Assembly (NCBI GenBank): GCA_963681965.1
Contig: OY820579.1
Location: forward strand, 1,056,001 to 1,120,000
DNA: 64,000 nt
Reading direction: 5' to 3'
From: a bacterium
Lineage (GTDB): Bacteria > Electryoneota > JAOADG01
Position numbers and translations under genes: made by a program
Shown here: positions 6,263 through 16,834 of the stretch, piece by piece
Numbering within the stretch: the stretch's first letter is position 1
How the letters are laid out: each line of letters opens with the position of its first letter
The notes under the pieces: generated by a model
What the model saw: the letters and a program-made list of their open reading frames with translations, nothing else
Told to the model about the DNA's origin: nothing
Database searches by the model: none

Positions 6263-9200
6263 TTGAATATGACAAATTCAAACTTAACGTTTCCGGACTA
6301 TTTTGCACATCGATACCGAGTTGAAAGAATATTGGGTAGTGGTGAAAACGGAACCGTATTTCTTGTCCGCGATATTTTGCAGCATGATCGATTACTAGCC
6401 CTCAAACGATTCCATCCCGGATCAATATCCGAAAGCGCTTTTCATTCGACAGCCAAACATCTCCGAGCTATCCAGAAATTGAAATGCGATGGTTTACTCA
6501 CTGCCATCGAGTTCGGCTTCGATCAACATAGTCAATTCTTTTATACTTCGGAGTATTGCGCCCACCCATCGCTGGAAGAAGAGTGGTGGAACCTTACTAA
6601 CCCAGAAAAGATAATTGTGTTATACGATCTTGCTGACATCATGCTTTCTCTTCATGATCATCAGGCACTTCATTATCATTTACACCCACGCAATGTTTTC
6701 ATCAATTTGTCAAACTTACGTAGTGACAATCGTCAGGGAAAAACGGTTCTGATCGGAGATTACTGCTTTCTGCCGGAAGAAAAAATCAGTGGCGGTTGTG
6801 CCGGGTATCGAGCACCGGAATTTGTCAATGATCAAAAATTCGACCACAAATCGGACATCTTCTCGTTCGGCGTGATCGGGTATTCTCTGTTAATGCAGCT
6901 TCCTCCGGACTTATCAACTTTAGCTGATAATATTAACAGTTTTTCGACCTCAGATGCTGAGATGGTTTCGAATAATATGATTGATAATTTATCGAAACTG
7001 CTGGTATCGCAACTTTTCCGCTGTATGAACCCCGTACCTAACTTTCGCCCCTACGATTTTCGCGAAATAATTTCGATTTTTCAGTATTCTCGTCAACGAC
7101 CTGATTGTAACGAAAAGTTGATTGTATCATTTCCATTTACCGGTCGAAGCGGTGAATTAAGGTTTTTAGGATCGATACTACACGATACGAAACAAGGCGA
7201 GCAATGGGCAGTAAATATTTTCGGTAGTAAGGGTGTTGGAAAGAGTCGATTGATTGACGAGTTTGCTTTCAATTATCAATTTAATGGTGGAATCGCTCTG
7301 TTTGTCGGCTCATCACTGATCGATACGCTTAAACGCTTCAATCCCAATCTATCGAGTAGCGAAACGGATCGTCAACTGACTAATCAGGCGATGCATCAGC
7401 ATTTTAGTGACACACTAATTTCTATTACTGACCACAAACCGATCGTAATCTGCTGGAATCAATTCGATCGTGCGGATACCGCATCCATAACTCTATTCAA
7501 AGAATTGCTGCTGCTTTATCCATCGCTACCAATTTTCTGGTTGTTGGAGAGTGAGTTGCCGGCACTGAGTCTCGATGGATTAGGTTTTACCGATCGGGTT
7601 ATTCGTCGCGAATTATTGCCGTTTTCTATGGAAGAAGTTGAAAAACTACTTCAGAACGTATTTCCTCGAACCGAGCATACTGGTAATTTAGCAAAATTAT
7701 TGAGTACACATTTCGGGACTCGACCGGGTTGGTTTGAATATGCAATAAATCGATTGATATCAAACCGCGCGATCAGTAACAACTTTGGTCGATGGGAAAT
7801 CGATATCGGATTAACCCAAAAGCTACTGCACGAAGATGGGGAATTAGTTCGAGTCGACCTTAGCAAGCTTTCGCAAGACGCTCAAACATTACTGGAGTGG
7901 ATGGCAGGACGGTCGAAACCGTGTCGAAAAGAAGAACTGCAATCGGCTATTAGCTTGACGGAGAGTGGATACTTTTCGGCAACGAATCAGTTGTTAAAGA
8001 TCGGGTTAATTGAGATTCATGGACCCGTGTTGAATATCCGATATTCGGCAGTGCGCGATGAAATCATCCGCTGCCTTTCGGAAAATAAGCGCAAAGTACT
8101 ACACAGTTGGATCGGTCGCTGGTTGGAAGAAAATATTTCGAATACTCCGAAACAATCCGAACTGTGGGAGATCGTTAAACATTATTATGAAGGCAGCGAC
8201 CGGTCATCATTCTTGAGAGTAATCGAAGAGTTGATTGCGAGATTTTATCGAAAACCGTCTTTGATCATTGACACGGAAATAATTCTGAAAGCGCTGTTAG
8301 AGCAGGATAGTCCGCTTCAGATGGAAAACCAATATCGCGGGTATTATCTGCTAGGTTTGTTGTATATCTTTACCGAAAAATTTGAGAAAGCGGTATGGGT
8401 ATATCGAACGGTATTAAGTACGAAAGCCTTCAAACCATACTACACTCTCTACTGGGCGCACAATATGTTGGGGCAGGCACTTTATGCCATGCAGGATTTT
8501 GCGAGTGCCGATCGAAATTTCCGACTTGCCATACGGTTGAATAAATCGCAATCGATCGATGAATTACCGCAATCGTTGCGAGCGCTGGCAACAATTTGTC
8601 ACAACCGAGCCAAGTACGACGCTGGGATCGAGTACATCGAAAAATACTATCAATCGATTCAACAAATTGAAGATTTAAATCGGAAGTACGACGAATTGTT
8701 CCGGTGTGGGCGCCTCTACTACATGTACAATATTCGCGAAAAAGCGGTCGAGCTTCTTCAGGAAGTTTACAATTGTACTCAATATACATCCAGTTTCATG
8801 AGACACATATCGTATGACACTATTATCAAAATTACGATGATGAAAGGTGAATTTCGTCTTGCCCTGCAAATGCTACAAAAGTATTTAATGCAACATAACG
8901 ATCCGCTACCTAGTAATCTGCAGTATAAGTTCGACTACACGAGAATTTTGTGTTATATCTCAACTGGGAAAGCCGACCAATGTTGGTTGCTGGTAGATAC
9001 TTATCAAGTACAAATTAAAATCTATCTCAATGTTTCAAGTCGCTTGCTCATTTCCATCGATTTAGTGCAACTTTTTTATTATTTCGGAAAGTTTCAATCG
9101 GGTTTGAAAGTTTTGCGGGAAGTCTTCTTATTATTCCGGGTGAGCAAACATCATTCGAATCTGCCGATATATTTAGCTTGGGTAGCGCAGTATTTCTATT

Positions 9201-11278
9201 TGATCAAACCGTCGAAACCGAAATTCTACGAACTCATCGATCGATACTTGATCAAAAATAAATCCCAAACCACGGCTACTTTCGGAAATCAGATCATGTA
9301 CGATCTTTATTGCGATCTGAATCAACCGATCCGGGCAAAAGCCGCACTAGAGCGAATCCCTAGAAAAGTCGGAATGAAGGATGTCGATATTCCCGATGAA
9401 TTGATAGTTGCGATGCAGTTCCGGATGGAAATCGAGTTGACTAAACCGCAATCGATCGACGAACCGAAATATAGTGAAATAGAAAAAAGTGTTCGAAACT
9501 TAGCTGATGTTTTCAATCAAGTACAGCTCTATCGCGAATTGATGAATGCCGCAATTGTGCAAACCGCGATTTCGTTGGCTGATCGATATTTCCATCGAGC
9601 ACTTGAATTGTTATTGTATGTTAAAGCTGACCTGTTAATTGCTCAATTGTATGAGAAATATGGATCGGCATTATATCGCTGGAATCGATCGCCAGTTGGA
9701 GCCGATTATCTGTCCAAGGCAAAGCGAATACTGATCGGATTGGGAATGCCCTATCGCGGAATCGACCCACAAAATATCGAAAATATCTCAGTGAATGGAG
9801 ATGACGAAATGAGTCGAATGATCGAACCATTGCGAATGATAACCAGATTAGTCGAGCGATTCAATGAGTTGGACGACCCAAGAACAATTATGCGACAACT
9901 GCTGGAAACGACTGTTACCGGTTTGAATGCAAAAATTGGGTGGGTTATTCAACTGAACAAAAATAATCAATTGTCGAAAAACGGAATGATTGCTACCGAC
10001 TCGGGGGCTTTACACGACGACTTATTGGAGTTGGGATCGAAAACTCTAAATCTTAATGAAGCAAAATACATCGAGCAGTTTACCAGAATTAATGATCGTA
10101 GCGATTCGACGTCAAATTACGGTATCTGTTTACTACCGATTTCGACTCGGGGAATTCGATCGGGAGTACTCTTGGTCGAATTCGCACAGATTCATGAATT
10201 CAATTCTGAGGAAAAGTGCGTTCTGGAACTCGTAGCTCAGATTTTCGGATCGATGTTCACTTTTGAAAACCAACTCGAGATGACTAGAAAAGATACTTCG
10301 CTAACACAAAGCGTGTTACTGAACGATGGGTACAGCGAATTAAAAGGGAATTCCCCGGCAATGCAAGAGGTTTACCGAATTCTGGCATTGCTTCGTAAAC
10401 AGGATTTACCGGTACTAATTCTTGGTGAAAGTGGAACTGGAAAGGAGTTGGTCGCGAATATTATGTATCGGCAGAGCAATCGGTCCGATAAACCGTTCTA
10501 TGCATTGAATTGTGCTGCTTTCCCCGATACACTGATCGAGAGTCAGTTGTTTGGTCACGTCAAAGGCGCTTTCAGTGGCGCAATGTCGAATCACGATGGG
10601 TTTTTCAAAACAGCCGAAGTAGGAACAATCTTTCTGGATGAAGTAAACCACATGAGTCCGATGATGCAAGGGAAGTTGCTTCGTGTGTTGCAGGAAGGCG
10701 AGTATTTTCCCGTCGGTTCGACGAAAGTTCAAAAGACCAATGCACGAATCATTTGTGCAGCCAAAAACACATTACCCGAGATGTTGCGAAGCGGGCAATT
10801 TCGCGAAGATTTATTTTACCGCATCAATGTGATCGAGGTTAAAATCCCGCCGTTACGCGATCGAAAAGAGGATATTAAAATCCTCGCCGAATATTTTATC
10901 CAAAAATTCAATAAACAATTTTCGGCATCGGTAAAAGGGATTCGGAACACAGCCATGCAGTCATTACAGAGTTATTCTTGGCCGGGAAACGTTCGGCAGT
11001 TGGAGAACGCAATTCGACACTCATTTTTATTTGTTAAGAAAAACACTTGGATCGACGCATCGCACCTTCCTCAAGAAGTCGTACAAAACACACTTCCACT
11101 AATTGATCAATCGATCTCGCTGACCAAAAAGATTGAAGACCTTGAACGGCAATATCTTTTACAGGCACTTGAACTGTCTCATTGGAATAATTCCGAAGCC
11201 GCGAGAATCCTGGGAGTCAGCCGACAAACGGTGATTCAAAAAATCAAACGGTACGGATTGTCCCAATCGAACACATAG
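6263..11278 (+). CDS. Multidomain sigma54-dependent enhancer-binding protein: degenerate Ser/Thr kinase + STAND ATPase + TPR + GAF-like + AAA+ sigma54 activator + Fis-type HTH
   Basis: Kinase GSGENG, ALK, RAPE and SDIFSFG. Second P-loop GSKGVGKS. bEBP motifs GESGTGKE, ESQLFGH..GAFSGA, IFLDEV, FREDLFYR and WPGNVRQLEN. C-terminal SEAARILGVSRQT HTH. True start may be the ATG at 6269. Confidence 0.9.
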   Translation: MNMTNSNLTFPDYFAHRYRVERILGSGENGTVFLVRDILQHDRLLALKRFHPGSISESAFHSTAKHLRAIQKLKCDGLLTAIEFGFDQHSQFFYTSEYCAHPSLEEEWWNLTNPEKIIVLYDLADIMLSLHDHQALHYHLHPRNVFINLSNLRSDNRQGKTVLIGDYCFLPEEKISGGCAGYRAPEFVNDQKFDHKSDIFSFGVIGYSLLMQLPPDLSTLADNINSFSTSDAEMVSNNMIDNLSKLLVSQLFRCMNPVPNFRPYDFREIISIFQYSRQRPDCNEKLIVSFPFTGRSGELRFLGSILHDTKQGEQWAVNIFGSKGVGKSRLIDEFAFNYQFNGGIALFVGSSLIDTLKRFNPNLSSSETDRQLTNQAMHQHFSDTLISITDHKPIVICWNQFDRADTASITLFKELLLLYPSLPIFWLLESELPALSLDGLGFTDRVIRRELLPFSMEEVEKLLQNVFPRTEHTGNLAKLLSTHFGTRPGWFEYAINRLISNRAISNNFGRWEIDIGLTQKLLHEDGELVRVDLSKLSQDAQTLLEWMAGRSKPCRKEELQSAISLTESGYFSATNQLLKIGLIEIHGPVLNIRYSAVRDEIIRCLSENKRKVLHSWIGRWLEENISNTPKQSELWEIVKHYYEGSDRSSFLRVIEELIARFYRKPSLIIDTEIILKALLEQDSPLQMENQYRGYYLLGLLYIFTEKFEKAVWVYRTVLSTKAFKPYYTLYWAHNMLGQALYAMQDFASADRNFRLAIRLNKSQSIDELPQSLRALATICHNRAKYDAGIEYIEKYYQSIQQIEDLNRKYDELFRCGRLYYMYNIREKAVELLQEVYNCTQYTSSFMRHISYDTIIKITMMKGEFRLALQMLQKYLMQHNDPLPSNLQYKFDYTRILCYISTGKADQCWLLVDTYQVQIKIYLNVSSRLLISIDLVQLFYYFGKFQSGLKVLREVFLLFRVSKHHSNLPIYLAWVAQYFYLIKPSKPKFYELIDRYLIKNKSQTTATFGNQIMYDLYCDLNQPIRAKAALERIPRKVGMKDVDIPDELIVAMQFRMEIELTKPQSIDEPKYSEIEKSVRNLADVFNQVQLYRELMNAAIVQTAISLADRYFHRALELLLYVKADLLIAQLYEKYGSALYRWNRSPVGADYLSKAKRILIGLGMPYRGIDPQNIENISVNGDDEMSRMIEPLRMITRLVERFNELDDPRTIMRQLLETTVTGLNAKIGWVIQLNKNNQLSKNGMIATDSGALHDDLLELGSKTLNLNEAKYIEQFTRINDRSDSTSNYGICLLPISTRGIRSGVLLVEFAQIHEFNSEEKCVLELVAQIFGSMFTFENQLEMTRKDTSLTQSVLLNDGYSELKGNSPAMQEVYRILALLRKQDLPVLILGESGTGKELVANIMYRQSNRSDKPFYALNCAAFPDTLIESQLFGHVKGAFSGAMSNHDGFFKTAEVGTIFLDEVNHMSPMMQGKLLRVLQEGEYFPVGSTKVQKTNARIICAAKNTLPEMLRSGQFREDLFYRINVIEVKIPPLRDRKEDIKILAEYFIQKFNKQFSASVKGIRNTAMQSLQSYSWPGNVRQLENAIRHSFLFVKKNTWIDASHLPQEVVQNTLPLIDQSISLTKKIEDLERQYLLQALELSHWNNSEAARILGVSRQTVIQKIKRYGLSQSNT

Positions 11279-11453: not shown

Positions 11454-11470
11454 TTGGCACATATAATGCT
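11454..11470 (+). promoter_or_regulatory. Sigma54 (-24/-12) promoter
   Basis: TTGGCAC-ATATA-ATGCT: GG at 11456-57 and GC at 11468-69 with exact 10-nt spacing. Intergenic, about 60 bp before the ATG at 11530, and adjacent to a bEBP gene. Confidence 0.8.
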
Positions 11471-11529: not shown

Positions 11530-11820
11530 ATGAAATCGCAGTTTAAAGCTTTGATTTGTATCGCCGTAATTCTCTGCCTTTCAATACTACCGAAAATAGG
11601 TTTTTGTGCTTGGGAATTTCAAGATGAGACTGGTGATGCGATTGTTCTCACTCGTACCGATCAAGTGAAGCATGAGATCAATAAAGGGATTTATTGCTTT
11701 TATGATGCCGGTGTAAACAAATGGATTACCATTTTGGATTTTTCACAATCACCCTACCCACTAGTGTCGATTCCGGGTTACACCCTGGTTTGGAAACCAG
11801 ATTCAAATTACGATTTCTAA
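11530..11820 (+). CDS. Small hypothetical secreted protein (96 aa)
   Basis: RBS GGGAGA. N-terminal signal peptide MKSQFKALICIAVILCLSILPKIGFCA. Short beta-rich mature part. Confidence 0.7.
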   Translation: MKSQFKALICIAVILCLSILPKIGFCAWEFQDETGDAIVLTRTDQVKHEINKGIYCFYDAGVNKWITILDFSQSPYPLVSIPGYTLVWKPDSNYDF

Positions 11821-11888: not shown

Positions 11889-12200
11889 ATGATCAATACT
11901 CGTCAAGCCGTACCTGATCAAGTCCAAGCGATTTGGGATCGTCTCTTGAATGAAGAAAATGTTATGGGAATGCGCAACCGAAGACCGGCAAATGCACGTT
12001 ATGCGATCTTTCGTGCAAAAGAGTTGCTCCCGATCGAATTCAATAATTTAAGATCGGCATTTGATCGATCACCAATCAATTTTGAGGAAAACGAAGAAGA
12101 TCAGTATCAACACCTGTCGTATTTGGCAAATATATCCTATTATGTCGTATTTCGCATTATTGAACATTCGGAATATAGTGCAGATGCCGTATTGAATTAA
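11889..12200 (+). CDS. Hypothetical protein (103 aa)
   Basis: Co-oriented ORF between neighbours with a GAGA RBS-like motif and a 13-bp gap to the next gene. No recognisable motif. Confidence 0.55.
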   Translation: MINTRQAVPDQVQAIWDRLLNEENVMGMRNRRPANARYAIFRAKELLPIEFNNLRSAFDRSPINFEENEEDQYQHLSYLANISYYVVFRIIEHSEYSADAVLN

Positions 12201-12213
12201 TTCTGGGACAAAT

Positions 12214-13104
12214 ATGGAAACCCAATTGTTGGAATTAACCAAGAAAATAAAAAAAATGCCGGATGGTGATTTTCGCTCTCAATTGCATCTTACGATACCG
12301 AAAGAGAACAAGCGAAATCAGTCATCGCAAAAGCGAATTCTTTACAGTTTTCCGGAAGAACCTCGGCTGCAGGTTCAACAATTGGGATATCTCATTAATA
12401 TTCTTCACCAGCATCTTCTGGGGAGTACTATTGAAAGTCACCGCGATTCAATCATTTCGATTCGATCTTATGGTGTTTATTATCTGATCAGTGAACTGTT
12501 GGAAAAAGTCGCAGCGGATGTAATCTCGGATCAAGAGCTTAATGTGAATTCGATTGCCTGGTGGGTGGGTGCGCTGCTTGACGACCAAATTGACTGGAAT
12601 ACTTCCTTTGATCGGATGTTGCAGCTCATTTATTATCCAGTTGATAATGGGTTAAATGACGTTGAATATTTGAAACAGAACTCCCCAATCTCGATTTTTC
12701 TTTCAGATGTTTTTAATAACAACATTTTAGGATCGACTTCCGTTGCATACTCTACTACTCCAATCCAATTTATTACCTCTGGAATATTGTGTGACAATGA
12801 ATTAATGTATTTTTACCGAAAATTGTCGAGCTGGCACAAAAATGGTATTCATCCGTGGATTAACTTATTGGATTACCGCTCTTTGGTGAAATGTGCAATT
12901 AGCTGCTATCAAATTCAACGATATCTTGAAATCCATTCGGGTTGGAAATGGCAGAAGATCGCGGAGGTGTTGAATGATATCCGAGCGATAAGGATCAGTT
13001 TAACAACGGAAGCCGTCACGTTAATTACTCGCCCGAATGTTGAACAAATGGAATTGTTCTACCGGCTAGATATACCCCCGCCAAAATCTGTGATAACCGA
13101 TTAA
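12214..13104 (+). CDS. IS1634-family transposase-derived protein, internally shortened and apparently lacking the DDE catalytic core
   Basis: The N-terminus KKMPDG..RILYSF..LGYLINILHQHL..SIRSYGVYYLISELLEK and the C-terminus RYLEIHSGWKWQKIAEVLNDI..ITRPNVEQMELFYRLDIPPP resemble IS1634 Tnp termini (recalled family pattern). Only 296 aa long. Confidence 0.55.
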   Translation: METQLLELTKKIKKMPDGDFRSQLHLTIPKENKRNQSSQKRILYSFPEEPRLQVQQLGYLINILHQHLLGSTIESHRDSIISIRSYGVYYLISELLEKVAADVISDQELNVNSIAWWVGALLDDQIDWNTSFDRMLQLIYYPVDNGLNDVEYLKQNSPISIFLSDVFNNNILGSTSVAYSTTPIQFITSGILCDNELMYFYRKLSSWHKNGIHPWINLLDYRSLVKCAISCYQIQRYLEIHSGWKWQKIAEVLNDIRAIRISLTTEAVTLITRPNVEQMELFYRLDIPPPKSVITD

Positions 13105-13489
13105 CACTTTTTACTCGCTTTAAATCACATCAAATTTCTTAATGCTTGAATTTGTTAGCATTAATCTCCCCTTAGCGAACTTGTCGTCTGTCAGTTGTAT
13201 CGAAATTCGAGATAAATTTTTAAATAAGTGACTGTTGCGTGGTGCTTTCAGATGTAAGCTGAATTGTTTTTCGTGTGAAAATATAACGACATAATGCAAT
13301 ATATTTGTAAATCTAAATAATTTACTCCAACAACTTCGATGAAAGAGATGGTTGGACGATTGGCGTTGAGAATACAAAAAAAATAATTTTTTCCCCCGCG
13401 AACTGTAGAAGCTCCTGTTTTCTTCCTATATTGGTTAAGTTCTTGAGTGCAACGATTCAACAACATCATTTAATGAGAATCATCGATAT

Positions 13490-13864
13490 ATGCATACTTC
13501 CAAAAGCGTCATTCCGGTGCTGAAACTATTCGATTATTTGATCGTTACGATCCAAATCGATATGGACGATCTAACCGCCAATCTCTTTCGAAACGACATT
13601 CTTAAGCAAATCGAAAAAACCAATGCAAAAGGTGTATTGATCGATATTTCGGTGATCGATTTAGTAGACAGTTATCTCGGTCGGGTTTTAGGCGACACGG
13701 CACGAATGGCAAAATTAATGGATTGCGAAGTCGTTCTGGTCGGTATGCAACCTGCAGTAGCATTGACTTTGGTCGAATTAGGCTTAAGTCTTGAATCGGT
13801 TCACACTTGTTTAAATCTGGAAGCCGGTCTAAAACTGTTGAACCGGTTAACCAAGGATCGATAA
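13490..13864 (+). CDS. rsbS: Stressosome STAS protein RsbS
   Basis: Single STAS domain with DISVIDLVDSYLGR (conserved phospho-Ser) and GMQPAVALTLVELG. Confidence 0.92.
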   Translation: MHTSKSVIPVLKLFDYLIVTIQIDMDDLTANLFRNDILKQIEKTNAKGVLIDISVIDLVDSYLGRVLGDTARMAKLMDCEVVLVGMQPAVALTLVELGLSLESVHTCLNLEAGLKLLNRLTKDR

Positions 13865-14274
13865 TGGATCCCACTATTATCGAAATCATAGAAGAAAAAG
13901 ACATTGTAGTCTGTCGTCAGGAATGCCGCAATCAAGCGCGGTTGCTGGGCTTTTCCTTAGTCGATCAGACGCGAATTACCACTGCCGCCAGTGAACTCGC
14001 CCGAAATATTTACGAATACGCCAAGAAGGGCGAAGTGCGGATTGAAAAGATTCAATCGTCGAACGGTATCGGATTGAAAATGTCGTTTATCGATCACGGT
14101 AAGGGTATCGAGAATGTCGACCTAGTGATGAAAGACGGGTGGAGTTCCCATCAAGGTATGGGAATGGGATTACCCGGATCGAAACGATTGATGGATGAAT
14201 TCTCGATTCAGTCTGAAATCGGAAAAGGAACGACTGTAGTAGCTGTGAAGTGGTTGCACAAGGTTTTGATTTAG
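13864..14274 (+). CDS. rsbT: Stressosome Ser/Thr kinase RsbT
   Basis: The start overlaps the rsbS stop (TAATG). Motifs QTRITTAASELARNIYEYA, DHGKGI, GMGMGLPGSKRLMDEF and GKGTTV. Confidence 0.93.
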   Translation: MDPTIIEIIEEKDIVVCRQECRNQARLLGFSLVDQTRITTAASELARNIYEYAKKGEVRIEKIQSSNGIGLKMSFIDHGKGIENVDLVMKDGWSSHQGMGMGLPGSKRLMDEFSIQSEIGKGTTVVAVKWLHKVLI

Positions 14275-14287
14275 AGAAAGGACAACG

Positions 14288-15280
14288 ATGGAAGCGAAAT
14301 TGGGATCACTAGAAAATCTAAAAGGGTTAATGGATGCAACAACCGGATTTTTGCGTGTAACCGATATCAATCAATTGTGTCAATTGACGGCGGATTCAAT
14401 TATCAAGTTTTCACCATTTCAGCGGTGCGTTGTTTCTGTATCTGAAACCGATGGAACATTCCGTCGAGTAGGCTTCAGTGGAATCAACAAAGCGCAAATC
14501 GATGAACTACTCAATATGCCCCGCCGCAAATTGTCCGAAACACAATCGCAACTGCAGGAACGCTTTCTAATCAGTCGATCCTATTATATTCCTCACGATG
14601 TTTCGAATTTGGTTGGTTTGAAAAGTACGATTACTTACGATACCAAAGCCGAATGGCATCCGGACGACTTCCTGTTCATTCCGTTGTACAATCCCGATAA
14701 TTCGATCGTCGGTTTAATCAACGTTGACGATCCATCGGACGGTCTCCGACCCACGGTTGCCAAATTATTGCCGTTGGAGATTTTTGCCAACCAAACGGCT
14801 GCAGCGTTGGAAAATATTCGCGGGATCCAGAAACAGCAGGAATTAATTCAACGGTTGCGCGATCAACAAAATGTCGTGCTGGAATTATCAACTCCGGTAA
14901 TTCAAATCACCGATCAAATATTGGCGCTACCGTTAATCGGAGCTGTGGACAGTGCCCGTGCGCAACAAATAATGGAAAATATTCTGATCCGGATTACCGA
15001 AACGGAAAGTGCTGTCATCATTATCGATATTACCGGAGTACCGATTATCGATACTTTAGTCGCTTCGCACTTGATCAAGACGGTCGCTGCGGCGAAACTG
15101 CTTGGTACGGAAGCGATTATCTCGGGAATTAATCCGGAAATAGCTCAAACGTTGATTCATCTTGGAGTTGATTTGACGAAGATTACAACGAAATCCAAAT
15201 TGTCCCGGGCATTGGATACGGCGTTGAAAATGACAAATCGAAAAATCGCTCCACTATTTGTTGAAAAAGAGAATGATTAA
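14288..15280 (+). CDS. rsbR: RsbR-family stressosome sensor with N-terminal GAF domain and C-terminal STAS
   Basis: GAF-like WHPDDFLFIPL..GLINVDDP. STAS motifs ELSTPVIQI, PLIGAVDSARA and DITGVPIIDTLVA. Confidence 0.88.
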   Translation: MEAKLGSLENLKGLMDATTGFLRVTDINQLCQLTADSIIKFSPFQRCVVSVSETDGTFRRVGFSGINKAQIDELLNMPRRKLSETQSQLQERFLISRSYYIPHDVSNLVGLKSTITYDTKAEWHPDDFLFIPLYNPDNSIVGLINVDDPSDGLRPTVAKLLPLEIFANQTAAALENIRGIQKQQELIQRLRDQQNVVLELSTPVIQITDQILALPLIGAVDSARAQQIMENILIRITETESAVIIIDITGVPIIDTLVASHLIKTVAAAKLLGTEAIISGINPEIAQTLIHLGVDLTKITTKSKLSRALDTALKMTNRKIAPLFVEKEND

Positions 15281-16347
15281 TGGCACTTGAAGGTTTGTCG
15301 CCCGATATCTTTTCAGTATCGGTGGCGCCGGGCGAGAAACTGAGGGTGATATCGTATCAATCGTCGTACGATTCATCATCGATTATCGCTGTAGCTTGTG
15401 GATTTGGGATTCAATTCGGATTTGTCGAACGCGACATTCAGGAACTTGAGATCGTAGTTCGCGAGTTGCTTGCAAATATTTCACGTCATGGAGGTGGAGA
15501 AGGCACGATCGTTTTTTATTCACGGGAATTGGCGGATCGTCTACCGACGTTGATTATTGATTTTATGGATAATGGTCCCGGTTTTCCCGATTACGATCTT
15601 TCGCTTCACGATAATACAATCAGTGGATTTACACCGGGAGGCGGATTACCATCGGCTCGACGGTTTTGTGATCGTGTCGAACTAATGCCGAATTCACCGA
15701 AAGGCGCAATTGTTCGAATCACGAAATCCAGCAGTCGGTCGAATCCACACCGTATCGGTTCGTTTGTTGTTTTGTCGAAACCGCATCTGGGTGAAACGCA
15801 CAATGGCGATCAGGCGACAGTAATTCACACCAATAATTTTACATTGGTCGCACTGGTTGATGGATTGGGTCACGGTTTAGTTGCTTTTCAAGCGGCAAAA
15901 TCCGCGATCACGATCATCGAACAAAATTATCAAGTACCACTTGATCAATTGATCAAAATTATGCATATCGAATTGATGAAAACGCGGGGTGCAGCGGTTT
16001 CGCTGGCAAAGATCAATTACGATCCACAGACGATCGATTATCTGGGTATTGGAAATGTAAATACGGCACTGATTTCCAATACAGCGAATCACTTAGTGAA
16101 TTACAACGGTACTGTCGGGCTTGATATTTCCCGGTCGCATGTTGTAACATACAAATATGAATTGGGCATGCGATTGATTATGTATACTGACGGTTTGGCG
16201 AGTAATTGGATGAAAAATCAAGATTTGAACATTGAGTGCGATGCCTTGCAACAGGCACACACCATTTTGTCCAGTCATGCCCGACCAACCGATGACGCAA
16301 CGCTGGTATTGGGTAAATTGATGCTTTGGACTCCGGAAAATGGATGA
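15280..16347 (+). CDS. HATPase_c (RsbT/RsbW-like) fused to SpoIIE/RsbX-type PP2C phosphatase
   Basis: HATPase motifs ELLANISRHGGG, DNGPG and GGGLPSARRFCD. PP2C motifs NGD, VDGLGHG, YTDG and TDDAT. Coupled to rsbR by TAATG. Confidence 0.85.
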   Translation: MALEGLSPDIFSVSVAPGEKLRVISYQSSYDSSSIIAVACGFGIQFGFVERDIQELEIVVRELLANISRHGGGEGTIVFYSRELADRLPTLIIDFMDNGPGFPDYDLSLHDNTISGFTPGGGLPSARRFCDRVELMPNSPKGAIVRITKSSSRSNPHRIGSFVVLSKPHLGETHNGDQATVIHTNNFTLVALVDGLGHGLVAFQAAKSAITIIEQNYQVPLDQLIKIMHIELMKTRGAAVSLAKINYDPQTIDYLGIGNVNTALISNTANHLVNYNGTVGLDISRSHVVTYKYELGMRLIMYTDGLASNWMKNQDLNIECDALQQAHTILSSHARPTDDATLVLGKLMLWTPENG

Positions 16348-16834
16348 GAACGATCAAATCATTGCCGGTCTGAAAAACGATATTCAATCGCTCCGCGACG
16401 AATTGGCTGAAACCAATCGAGGAGTAATTGCACTATACTCCGAAATTGAAGACGCCAATCTTCAATTACAACAACAGCGAAACGAATTGAAAGCTAAAAA
16501 CGATCTCCTTGAAGCAACGATGGTGCAGTTGGAAGAGGCGAATCGCGAAATCTCCAAACGTGAACGTAATGCCGCCATCGGACAAATGGTCATTACCTAC
16601 AATCACGAAATCAACAACCCGCTCTTTGTCATCCAAGGGACACTAAGTTTGATGCAAAAATTCCCGCCCAAGGATGAGGAAAAGTTGAAAGAAAAAATTC
16701 GTATTATCCTTGATAATTGCGATCGAATCAGTCGCGTCCTACTTCGGATCAGAGAATTTGACAATCTCTTGCCGAAGAAGTATTTGAATAGCGAGTTGCT
16801 TGATCTCAAATTAACTAAAGATTTAACAACCTGA
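16340..16834 (+). CDS. Coiled-coil + HisKA/DHp phosphoacceptor protein without ATP-binding domain
   Basis: ELAETNRGVIALYSEI coil and H-box TYNHEINNPL. The protein ends about 70 aa later with no N/G1/F/G2 boxes. Confidence 0.75.
   Translation: MDENDQIIAGLKNDIQSLRDELAETNRGVIALYSEIEDANLQLQQQRNELKAKNDLLEATMVQLEEANREISKRERNAAIGQMVITYNHEINNPLFVIQGTLSLMQKFPPKDEEKLKEKIRIILDNCDRISRVLLRIREFDNLLPKKYLNSELLDLKLTKDLTT

Follow-up and report, generated by a model that had tools for sequence, protein, structure and literature searches.

Domesticated transposases are well documented in eukaryotes, and judging from excerpts of the domestication literature, almost all cases found are eukaryotic. The bacterial precedent found comprises TnpB-derived repressors, as outlined in excerpts of a preprint (bioRxiv 10.1101/2023.11.30.569447). 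The reported distribution of IS1634 family transposases covers many bacterial phyla as well as archaea, and excerpts of the same study document that the enzyme of Acidiphilium sp. PM binds the beta sliding clamp via a C-terminal motif of weak consensus (Q-L-x-L-F); mutation of Q1 and F5 of this motif abolishes binding (PMC4549789). Here, we describe an open reading frame (ORF) of 296 amino acids (aa) in a bacterium of the phylum Electryoneota (lineage JAOADG01), which is located at positions 12214..13104 (+ strand) of a 64-kb stretch of contig OY820579.1 (assembly GCA_963681965.1, positions 1,056,001 to 1,120,000; hereafter called the window). Profile and alignment evidence places its product in a family of ~300-aa proteins that derives from IS1634 transposases and lacks their DDE core. 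The gene is very probably a transposase-derived, non-catalytic host gene under selection. The best full explanation, namely a domesticated IS1634 derivative that probably serves as a non-catalytic DNA-binding factor, is a likely one, and the assignment of DNA binding as such is more tentative.

The ORF starts with ATG and contains no internal stop codon, as described in the initial annotation. The ribosome-binding site claimed there is present only in weak form, as a GGGAC candidate 8-12 nt 5' of the ATG. An alternative TTG start at position 12229 may be considered, because it would bring the N-terminus into better register with the first residues of the family. With 296 aa, the protein has about half the length of genuine IS1634 transposases of the same phylum (491-606 aa), which agrees with the earlier estimate.

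The relationship to IS1634 transposases emerges from comparisons of profiles. The sole NCBIfam match of the window protein is NF033559, the model of the IS1634 family transposase (curated cut-off, 100 bits), and covers residues 231-288 against model positions 419-482 of 483, with E 0.1 and 11.6 bits, below the cut-off; four of the five family members tested also match this model (best E, 0.0052). An alignment of the family (A2; 27 rows) was compared with a reference alignment of seven genuine IS1634 transposases from genomes of the same phylum (A3; 491-606 aa; 233-393 bits to NF033559). When the whole alignments were compared with hhalign, residues 225-293 of the window protein aligned with residues 468-541 of the 544-aa reference transposase (probability 94.6, E 7.3e-8). 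When the blocks were compared separately, the N-terminal block (residues 4-145; 12223..12648, + strand) aligned over 142 columns with transposase residues 1-143, upstream of the DDE domain (probability 90.3, P 1.5e-6), and the C-terminal block (residues 222-293; 12877..13092, + strand), which also contains the match to NF033559, aligned with transposase residues 465-541 of 544 (probability 96.3-97.3, P 2e-9 to 2.6e-11). Mismatched pairings (N-terminal block with core or C-terminus, C-terminal block with N-terminus or core) reached probabilities of only 0.1-0.6. With reversed alignments, and with 30 shuffles of the columns for each comparison, scores did not exceed 18 (N-terminal block, 16), compared with observed scores of 45-62. 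The parallels to both ends of IS1634 transposases, which had been drawn in the initial annotation, are thus reproduced as co-linear similarities with clean null controls.

The same relationship is obtained in the reverse direction. When the hidden Markov model (HMM) of the family was searched against 79 genomes of the phylum, it matched a genuine transposase of 562 aa (G021; 391 bits to NF033559) twice in one frame, with family positions 1-97 at its start (E 3.2e-4) and positions 206-277 at its end (E 2.5e-4), ~370 aa apart. Other searches returned little. The window protein has no Pfam match at E<=10, and a sequence search of the PDB retrieved only three thioesterase rows (E 1.9) with the protein and none with the family profile. 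PADLOC gave no family matches and PHROGs only noise (E~0.2). The best score in the ESM Atlas (0.85) lies below the 0.9 level; the rows include an 'IS4-like transposase', which we regard as a lead only.

It is very unlikely that the resemblance to transposases is due to chance or convergence, and the combined probability of such an origin and of the reverse scenario, in which IS1634 captured its ends from a host protein, is minimal. Either would fit the non-significant E-values of the single-sequence searches and the lack of fold evidence, but neither is easily reconciled with two separate blocks that are co-linear with the transposase, each at P<=1e-5 and with clean nulls, or with the reciprocal match of the family HMM to both ends of a genuine transposase. 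Because the family was detected in no more than 7 of the 79 phylum genomes searched, while IS1634 spans many phyla and also archaea, the short form should be the derived one.

The segment missing between the two blocks is the catalytic core. The Pfam domain DDE_Tnp_1 occupies residues 193-477 of the 544-aa reference transposase, a stretch that has no counterpart in the family; genuine transposases match this domain at 1e-11 to 1e-16, and the window protein does not match it. The family therefore retains the parts outside the catalytic domain, with ~75 unrelated residues between them. Three invariant columns of the reference alignment (D200, D279, and E441), whose contexts we take to be those of the DDE triad, are all located inside the missing stretch. 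In its place, the family has a linker of its own (residues 146-221; 12649..12876, + strand), which is recognizable by conserved columns (K203 and W207), replaces the ~320-aa core, and shows no detectable similarity to the full transposase (hhalign probability 0.6). The absence of the core noted in the initial annotation is therefore evident, with homology at both ends and no match between them. By contrast, the proposal that LMYFYRKLS is the counterpart of the catalytic VExAFRxLK motif found no support. The segment is reached only by greedy extension of the hhalign alignment, with zero column confidence, and the extension pairs MYFYRKL with VEYAFRDIK in a register that is one residue off that proposed. 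The confident part of the C-terminal alignment starts at window residue 222, which corresponds to transposase residue 465, ~24 residues past E441; this spacing is compatible with a remnant of the Glu motif, even though the claim itself remains unsupported.

The protein is encoded by a single-copy gene. In the closed 4.24-Mb genome that contains the window (G000), it matches only itself, and the ORF, both flanking gaps, and the arms of an inverted repeat around the gene (see below) are unique by blastn. The IS1634 model yields only the same weak C-terminal match (E 0.23), and this genome contains no IS1634 transposase. An exhaustive HMMER scan of 1.84 billion representatives returned 24 proteins at E<=1e-3 (13 at <=1e-10), which are 22-33% identical to the query; 23 of them have lengths of 285-343 aa, and one is a fragment of 151 aa. 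No longer homologs were present among 7998 candidates that were searched with the family alignment, which is weak evidence. A word-indexed homolog search retrieved only the window protein itself, and the use of a narrower family alignment as query returned two genomes that were already known and three metagenome contigs.

Within the phylum, the family is confined to two of nine families; the profile found no member in the other 72 genomes. Members with open frames occur in a relative of the same genus (G001), in one of the same family (G002), and in G039, G027 (two tandem copies), G045, and G047. Conserved blocks of the family alignment comprise RD-I--S-SYG--YLI in the first third, K-L--W in the middle, and TG--W--I---L-EL--I-VE------LTTRPT--QL-IFYRL-I--PP at the C-terminus. 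Three of ten clusters carry any public name, which is 'hypothetical protein' throughout, so the family is currently unannotated; one is labelled as Calditrichota bacterium. The tandem duplication of the family gene is found in G027 (locus L033, 8024-10320) and on the metagenome contig L039 (713-3067), where the copies are 36% identical to each other.

Selection was estimated for five closer pairs of orthologs (50-61% aa identity; dN 0.26-0.41, dS 1.1-3.2). The ratio dN/dS was 0.13-0.22 with NG86 (three pairs computable), 0.19-0.29 with LWL85 (all five pairs), and 0.20-0.25 with YN00 (two pairs computable). Because dS is near saturation, these ratios are, if anything, overestimates. They are far from 1 and point to purifying selection in these other members of the family; among the distant members, all 28 pairs either showed saturation of dS or gave no computable value. 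All eight genomic and three metagenomic copies are open frames of ~300 aa despite saturated synonymous sites.

These results bear on the possibility that the gene is a decaying IS1634 remnant whose frame is open merely by chance. Its similarity to transposases is very low, the GC content around the ORF (38-39%) is at the low end of the range in the window (38-52%), and the locus has been rearranged and contains an orphan ORF and a bracketing inverted repeat, all of which would fit a relic. Nevertheless, simple decay is very unlikely, since the frames are intact in all these copies, the conserved blocks and the synteny are maintained, the dN/dS values are 0.13-0.29, and all members share the same deletion of the core. 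Homologs do not occur only as variable remnants of insertion sequences (IS) but form a coherent family of ~300 aa in conserved synteny. The initial annotation had favored exaptation over decay, and the single copy, the fixed gene order, the dN/dS values, and the absence of IS1634 from the genome all speak for it.

Of the two functions that had been suggested as examples for the exapted protein, that of a DNA-binding regulator is plausible, and that of a dominant-negative inhibitor which poisons or titrates an active IS1634 transposase is disfavored. In favor of an inhibitor, the regions that would be expected to contact transposon ends and the clamp have been kept while catalysis has been lost, and IS1634 is apparently active elsewhere in the phylum, where one genome (G052) has at least eight intact copies. 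However, the window genome has no IS1634 transposase that could be inhibited, only one of the seven family-bearing genomes (G039) has one above the cut-off, and the gene is located in a conserved host operon, neither in nor beside an IS. Moreover, co-assembly with transposases seems unlikely because the identity is only 13-15%. We therefore give the inhibitor function hardly any weight. The element in G052 (loci L060-L063) is an apparently active IS1634 of ~1.98 kb, with transposases of 568-593 aa; the four copies compared are 99-100% identical and have a perfect terminal inverted repeat of 16 bp.

The genomic context was examined at ten loci. In the window, G001, G002, G039, G027, G045, and G047 and on the contigs L039 and L040, the family gene occupies an orthologous position in the order bacterial enhancer-binding protein (bEBP), small signal-peptide protein, family protein, and, usually, histidine kinase. 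The small protein (96 aa in the window; 11530..11820, + strand) has a signal-peptide-like N-terminus and appears to be an obligate upstream partner. It is encoded directly upstream of the family gene in all nine loci with at least 300 nt of upstream sequence, and ten such proteins can be aligned as a single family in which an R, a G, a Y, and a W are invariant. Of the 79 genomes, exactly the 7 that encode the family protein also encode the small protein, always next to it; as these genomes were the source of the small-protein profile, more distant solo copies may have escaped detection. The small-protein gene of G039 is present in two tandem copies.

The bEBP directly upstream of the pair is a giant protein (1671 aa; 6263..11278, + strand) with Ser/Thr-kinase, AAA_16, sigma-54 activator, and HTH_8 domains, as identified with Pfam. 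Its homologs of ~1700 aa consist of Pkinase, AAA_16, TPR, GAF (where scored), Sigma54_activat, and HTH_8. This activator was confirmed with Pfam in all six loci that reach far enough and is visible by eye on L040. The architecture is the same in G039, G047, G027, and G045; in G002, only the C-terminal part is present, as the contig end cuts off the rest. Directly past the stop codon of the activator gene of G039 there is a long, near-perfect hairpin (L031, 6381-6480).

A cytoplasmic HisKA-HATPase kinase, with or without PAS and REC domains, is encoded directly downstream of the family gene in G002, G039, G047, G027, and G045 (Pfam) and probably also on L039, judging from the likeness to the kinase of G027. 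No histidine kinase is located directly downstream in the window and in G001, and none is visible in the 545 nt available on L040. Where the relatives carry their PAS-HisKA-HATPase kinase, the window contains a stressosome-like run of genes (13490-16834, + strand), which encode proteins of 124 aa (STAS), 155 aa (HATPase kinase-like), 330 aa (C-terminal STAS domain), 355 aa (HATPase_c_2 and SpoIIE phosphatase), and 164 aa (HisKA only). The kinase of G047 is encoded by two overlapping ORFs (L032, 6324-7899, - strand; 165-aa PAS and 390-aa HisKA-HATPase-REC), which may be due to a frameshift or to an error in the assembly or may represent a genuine split.

A sigma-54 type -24/-12 element (TGGCAC-N5-ATGC; 11455..11469, + strand) ends 60 nt before the start codon of the small-protein gene. 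Equivalent elements occur ~30-75 nt before the start of the small gene in seven of seven loci; that of G002 is a perfect consensus, and that of G001 has GT at -12. A single match is not significant on its own, as two matches were found in the window compared with 2.74 expected, and the weight therefore rests on the conserved position. When 101 kb were scanned on both strands at the same stringency, 20 matches were found, which corresponds to ~0.01 expected per 100-nt target, with the reservation that the loci are related and not independent. A sigma-70 promoter scan remained at chance level (8 found, 8.2 expected), the window genome encodes rpoN (339 bits), and no terminator-like site was found between 11200 and 13600. 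The region from the small gene through the ORF probably forms one sigma-54-dependent transcription unit that is driven by the neighboring activator. The second copy of the tandem pair in G027 has its own -24/-12 box (L033, 8973).

The spacer between the small gene and the family gene is 393 nt long in the window, compared with 62-195 nt in the relatives, and contains an orphan ORF of 103 aa (11889..12200, + strand). A search of 40 relatives detected no homolog of this ORF (best E, 0.022), and neither Pfam nor NCBIfam gave a match; it was rejected as a conserved member of the module for lack of homologs in these relatives, and it is doubtful whether it represents a real gene. The family gene of the window is also bracketed by an imperfect inverted repeat with arms of 22 nt (12127..12148 and 13286..13307). 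Its match of 19/22 was reached by none of 100 shuffles, and its arms occur nowhere else in the genome. A matching repeat is absent from the copies of seven relatives, where the best pairs (15-17/22) were reached by 4 to 97 of 100 shuffles. The repeat was rejected as a relic of IS ends, as it is unlike the 16-bp end repeat of the IS1634 in G052 (best 14/22) and absent from the relatives; a binding site and a scar left by local rearrangement are two conceivable explanations. The statement in the initial annotation that there are no obvious terminal inverted repeats therefore holds in the sense of an IS, the flanks being unique in the genome and free of IS-type ends, but it overlooked this unique repeat around the gene.

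The two genes appear to form a strictly paired unit under sigma-54 control within a kinase-rich signaling module, with the family protein as the cytoplasmic partner. This context allows for a different function of a protein of the same origin, which might act through protein-protein contacts as an adaptor or modulator of the bEBP or the histidine kinase, or as a cytoplasmic partner for making or exporting the small protein. Such a role would be in line with the strict pairing with the small secreted protein, always adjacent in 7 of the 79 genomes, and with the rapid evolution of the whole module in step: relative to G039, the family proteins of G047, G027, and G045 are 50, 37, and 29% identical, their activators 54, 49, and 35%, and their kinases 62, 52, and 43%. 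The divergence of the family protein thus tracks that of its neighbors, and no other part of this rapidly changing module evolves as quickly. Also, neither Foldseek nor VIA-align recognized a DNA-binding fold with confidence, and the relatives have no conserved inverted-repeat sites flanking the gene. On the other hand, the retained N-terminal part corresponds to the region that usually recognizes DNA ends in DDE transposases, and residues 1-73 weakly match folds that bind nucleic acids, such as Pur-alpha and PC4 (Z 3.9-5.2). Furthermore, only the small protein has a signal-peptide-like N-terminus, so the two proteins probably reside in different compartments. Overall, an action through protein contacts, although the main rival, seems rather unlikely, and we consider binding of DNA by the ORF product, by analogy with transposases, a distinctly better candidate, albeit one we would rate somewhat below even.

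A second property that may have been inherited concerns the beta clamp. Near its C-terminus, the window protein carries the sequence QMELF (residues 278-282; 13045..13059, + strand), followed by 14 further residues, which represents a Q-h-x-h-F motif at the place where IS1634 transposases carry the clamp-binding motif. It is the best-conserved motif of the family: 20 of the 27 rows combine the Q with hydrophobic residues at positions 4 and 5, and the hydrophobic pair is present in all 27. The aligned position near the transposase C-terminus, the only such position there, is Q in four of the seven reference transposases; the equivalence in position to the published clamp motif rests on our own alignment. 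A complex prediction of the family protein with DnaN of its own genome, run without controls, gave a score of 0.00 and a mark of 0.32, values that count neither towards binding nor against it.

The structure of the window protein was predicted with AlphaFold2. The model obtained from the single sequence was unusable (predicted local distance difference test [pLDDT] 35.7); the one obtained with the family alignment reached a pLDDT of 79.8 and a predicted template modeling score (pTM) of 0.75, with low confidence at residues 141-190. In the predicted layout, three strands and a long helix at the N-terminus are followed by a helical middle part and, at the C-terminus, by a hairpin and a helix.

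Several observations weigh against a domesticated transposase that binds DNA. The aligned profile columns are only 13-15% identical to those of transposases, and the single-sequence matches are all non-significant on their own (E 0.1). A Foldseek search of the predicted structure against the PDB retrieved nothing at E<=1e-3, and the best VIA-align match (Pur-alpha, residues 1-73) has a Z of 5.2, with none of 48161 chains at Z>=5.3; it is followed by small PC4-type and COMMD matches within residues 1-78, whose Z values (3.7-4.8) are below the meaningful level. The putative DNA-binding activity is assigned by analogy to what the N-termini of transposases generally do. The Q-h-x-h-F motif is located in a confidently predicted helix (H276-284) and not in a flexible tail, so its conservation could reflect folding alone. 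The selection figures stem from other members of the family and not from the lineage of the window. Finally, the window copy itself is atypical. Its locus is the most rearranged of those examined, with the 393-nt spacer, the orphan ORF, and no kinase directly downstream; its C-terminal tail comprises 19 residues from the motif Q onward, compared with 43-63 in the others; its HMM score is the lowest of the family; and it is only 26-29% identical to its nearest relative, although DnaN of the same-genus G001 is 86% identical. In the comparison of G000 with G001 (L003, 1076-2029), the family proteins are 26% and the small proteins 34% identical. Either the module was replaced in one of the two lineages or it diverged unusually fast; the contig of G001 is only 2.6 kb long.

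In DDE transposases, the N-terminal region generally holds the end-recognition (DNA-binding) part. The scenario that we propose is that an ancestral IS1634 transposase lost the whole DDE catalytic domain (~320 aa) and kept the N-terminal ~145 aa and the C-terminal ~75 aa, including the Q-h-x-h-F motif, which would then have been joined by a new linker of ~75 aa. Its product would no longer cut or join DNA, and its gene would no longer be mobile but would have been fixed as a host gene in two families within a single phylum. As the second gene of a two-gene unit that starts with the small secreted protein, it would be transcribed from a sigma-54 promoter, which is most likely controlled by the adjacent giant kinase/bEBP, and the unit would usually be situated beside a cytoplasmic histidine kinase. 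The most likely mechanism would then be that of a non-catalytic, sequence-specific DNA-binding factor that serves as output or modulator of the signaling module and is perhaps held at the clamp. We infer that the protein binds DNA and the clamp and that the bEBP controls its gene, and its biological role is likewise an inference. The most far-reaching version, in which a bacterial transcription factor or chromosome-associated protein arose from a DDE transposase through clean loss of the catalytic domain and is the DNA-level output of a sigma-54/Ser-Thr-kinase/histidine-kinase circuit that exports a small protein, is speculative and rather improbable. If true, a secreted signal would be coupled, via a retained end-recognition domain and a clamp tether, to DNA binding associated with the replication fork.

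Domestication of transposases in bacteria seems to be rare, and we found no paper describing such an IS1634-derived family in the literature outside subscription journals. The family would be a clear bacterial case of a domesticated DDE (IS4-related) transposase, and its anatomy is unusual because the whole catalytic domain is gone while both flanking parts are kept and conserved. This makes it a compact system for asking which parts of a transposase can be reused by hosts, whether the clamp-binding motif survives domestication, and how the paired small secreted protein and the giant kinase/sigma-54 activator are involved.

Compared with IS1634 transposases (NF033559; IS4-related DDE enzymes), the family is homologous and co-linear in its N-terminal ~145 aa and C-terminal ~75 aa but differs in lacking DDE_Tnp_1, in its length (296 vs. 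491-606 aa), and in its score (11.6 bits vs. a cut-off of 100). Unlike IS1634 elements, the window gene is present in a single copy, has no IS ends, and is fixed in a host operon. Like the transposase of Acidiphilium sp. PM, as characterized in excerpts of the respective study, the family has a Q-h-x-h-F motif near the C-terminus (PMC4549789). However, clamp binding has been demonstrated for that transposase, whereas the motif of the family is known from sequence and lies in a predicted helix. Inhibitors of the Tn5 Inh type resemble the family in being shortened, transposase-related proteins, and Inh lacks transposition activity. Inh is made from the transposase gene of the active element, lacks only the N-terminus, and inhibits Tn5 transposase. 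By contrast, the family protein is encoded by a separate, ancient gene, lacks the core, and occurs in genomes that are mostly devoid of the element. A parallel in fate is offered by TldR proteins, whose RuvC domain has reportedly been mutated or truncated, with loss of catalysis. According to excerpts of their description, these nuclease-dead TnpB derivatives act as transcription factors, so that here, too, a transposon-encoded protein lost catalysis and was kept as a regulator of host or phage (bioRxiv 10.1101/2023.11.30.569447). Unlike TldR, which belongs to the RNA-guided TnpB class, the family stems from a DDE transposase, has no known guide RNA, and had the whole internal catalytic domain removed while both ends were kept. 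In being transposase-derived, immobile, and under purifying selection, it also resembles the domesticated DDE transposases of eukaryotes (such as ALP1/ALP2 and PGBD1), which were recruited to host regulation. These eukaryotic proteins have mostly kept an inactive catalytic fold, whereas the family described here is bacterial and has dispensed with the fold altogether.

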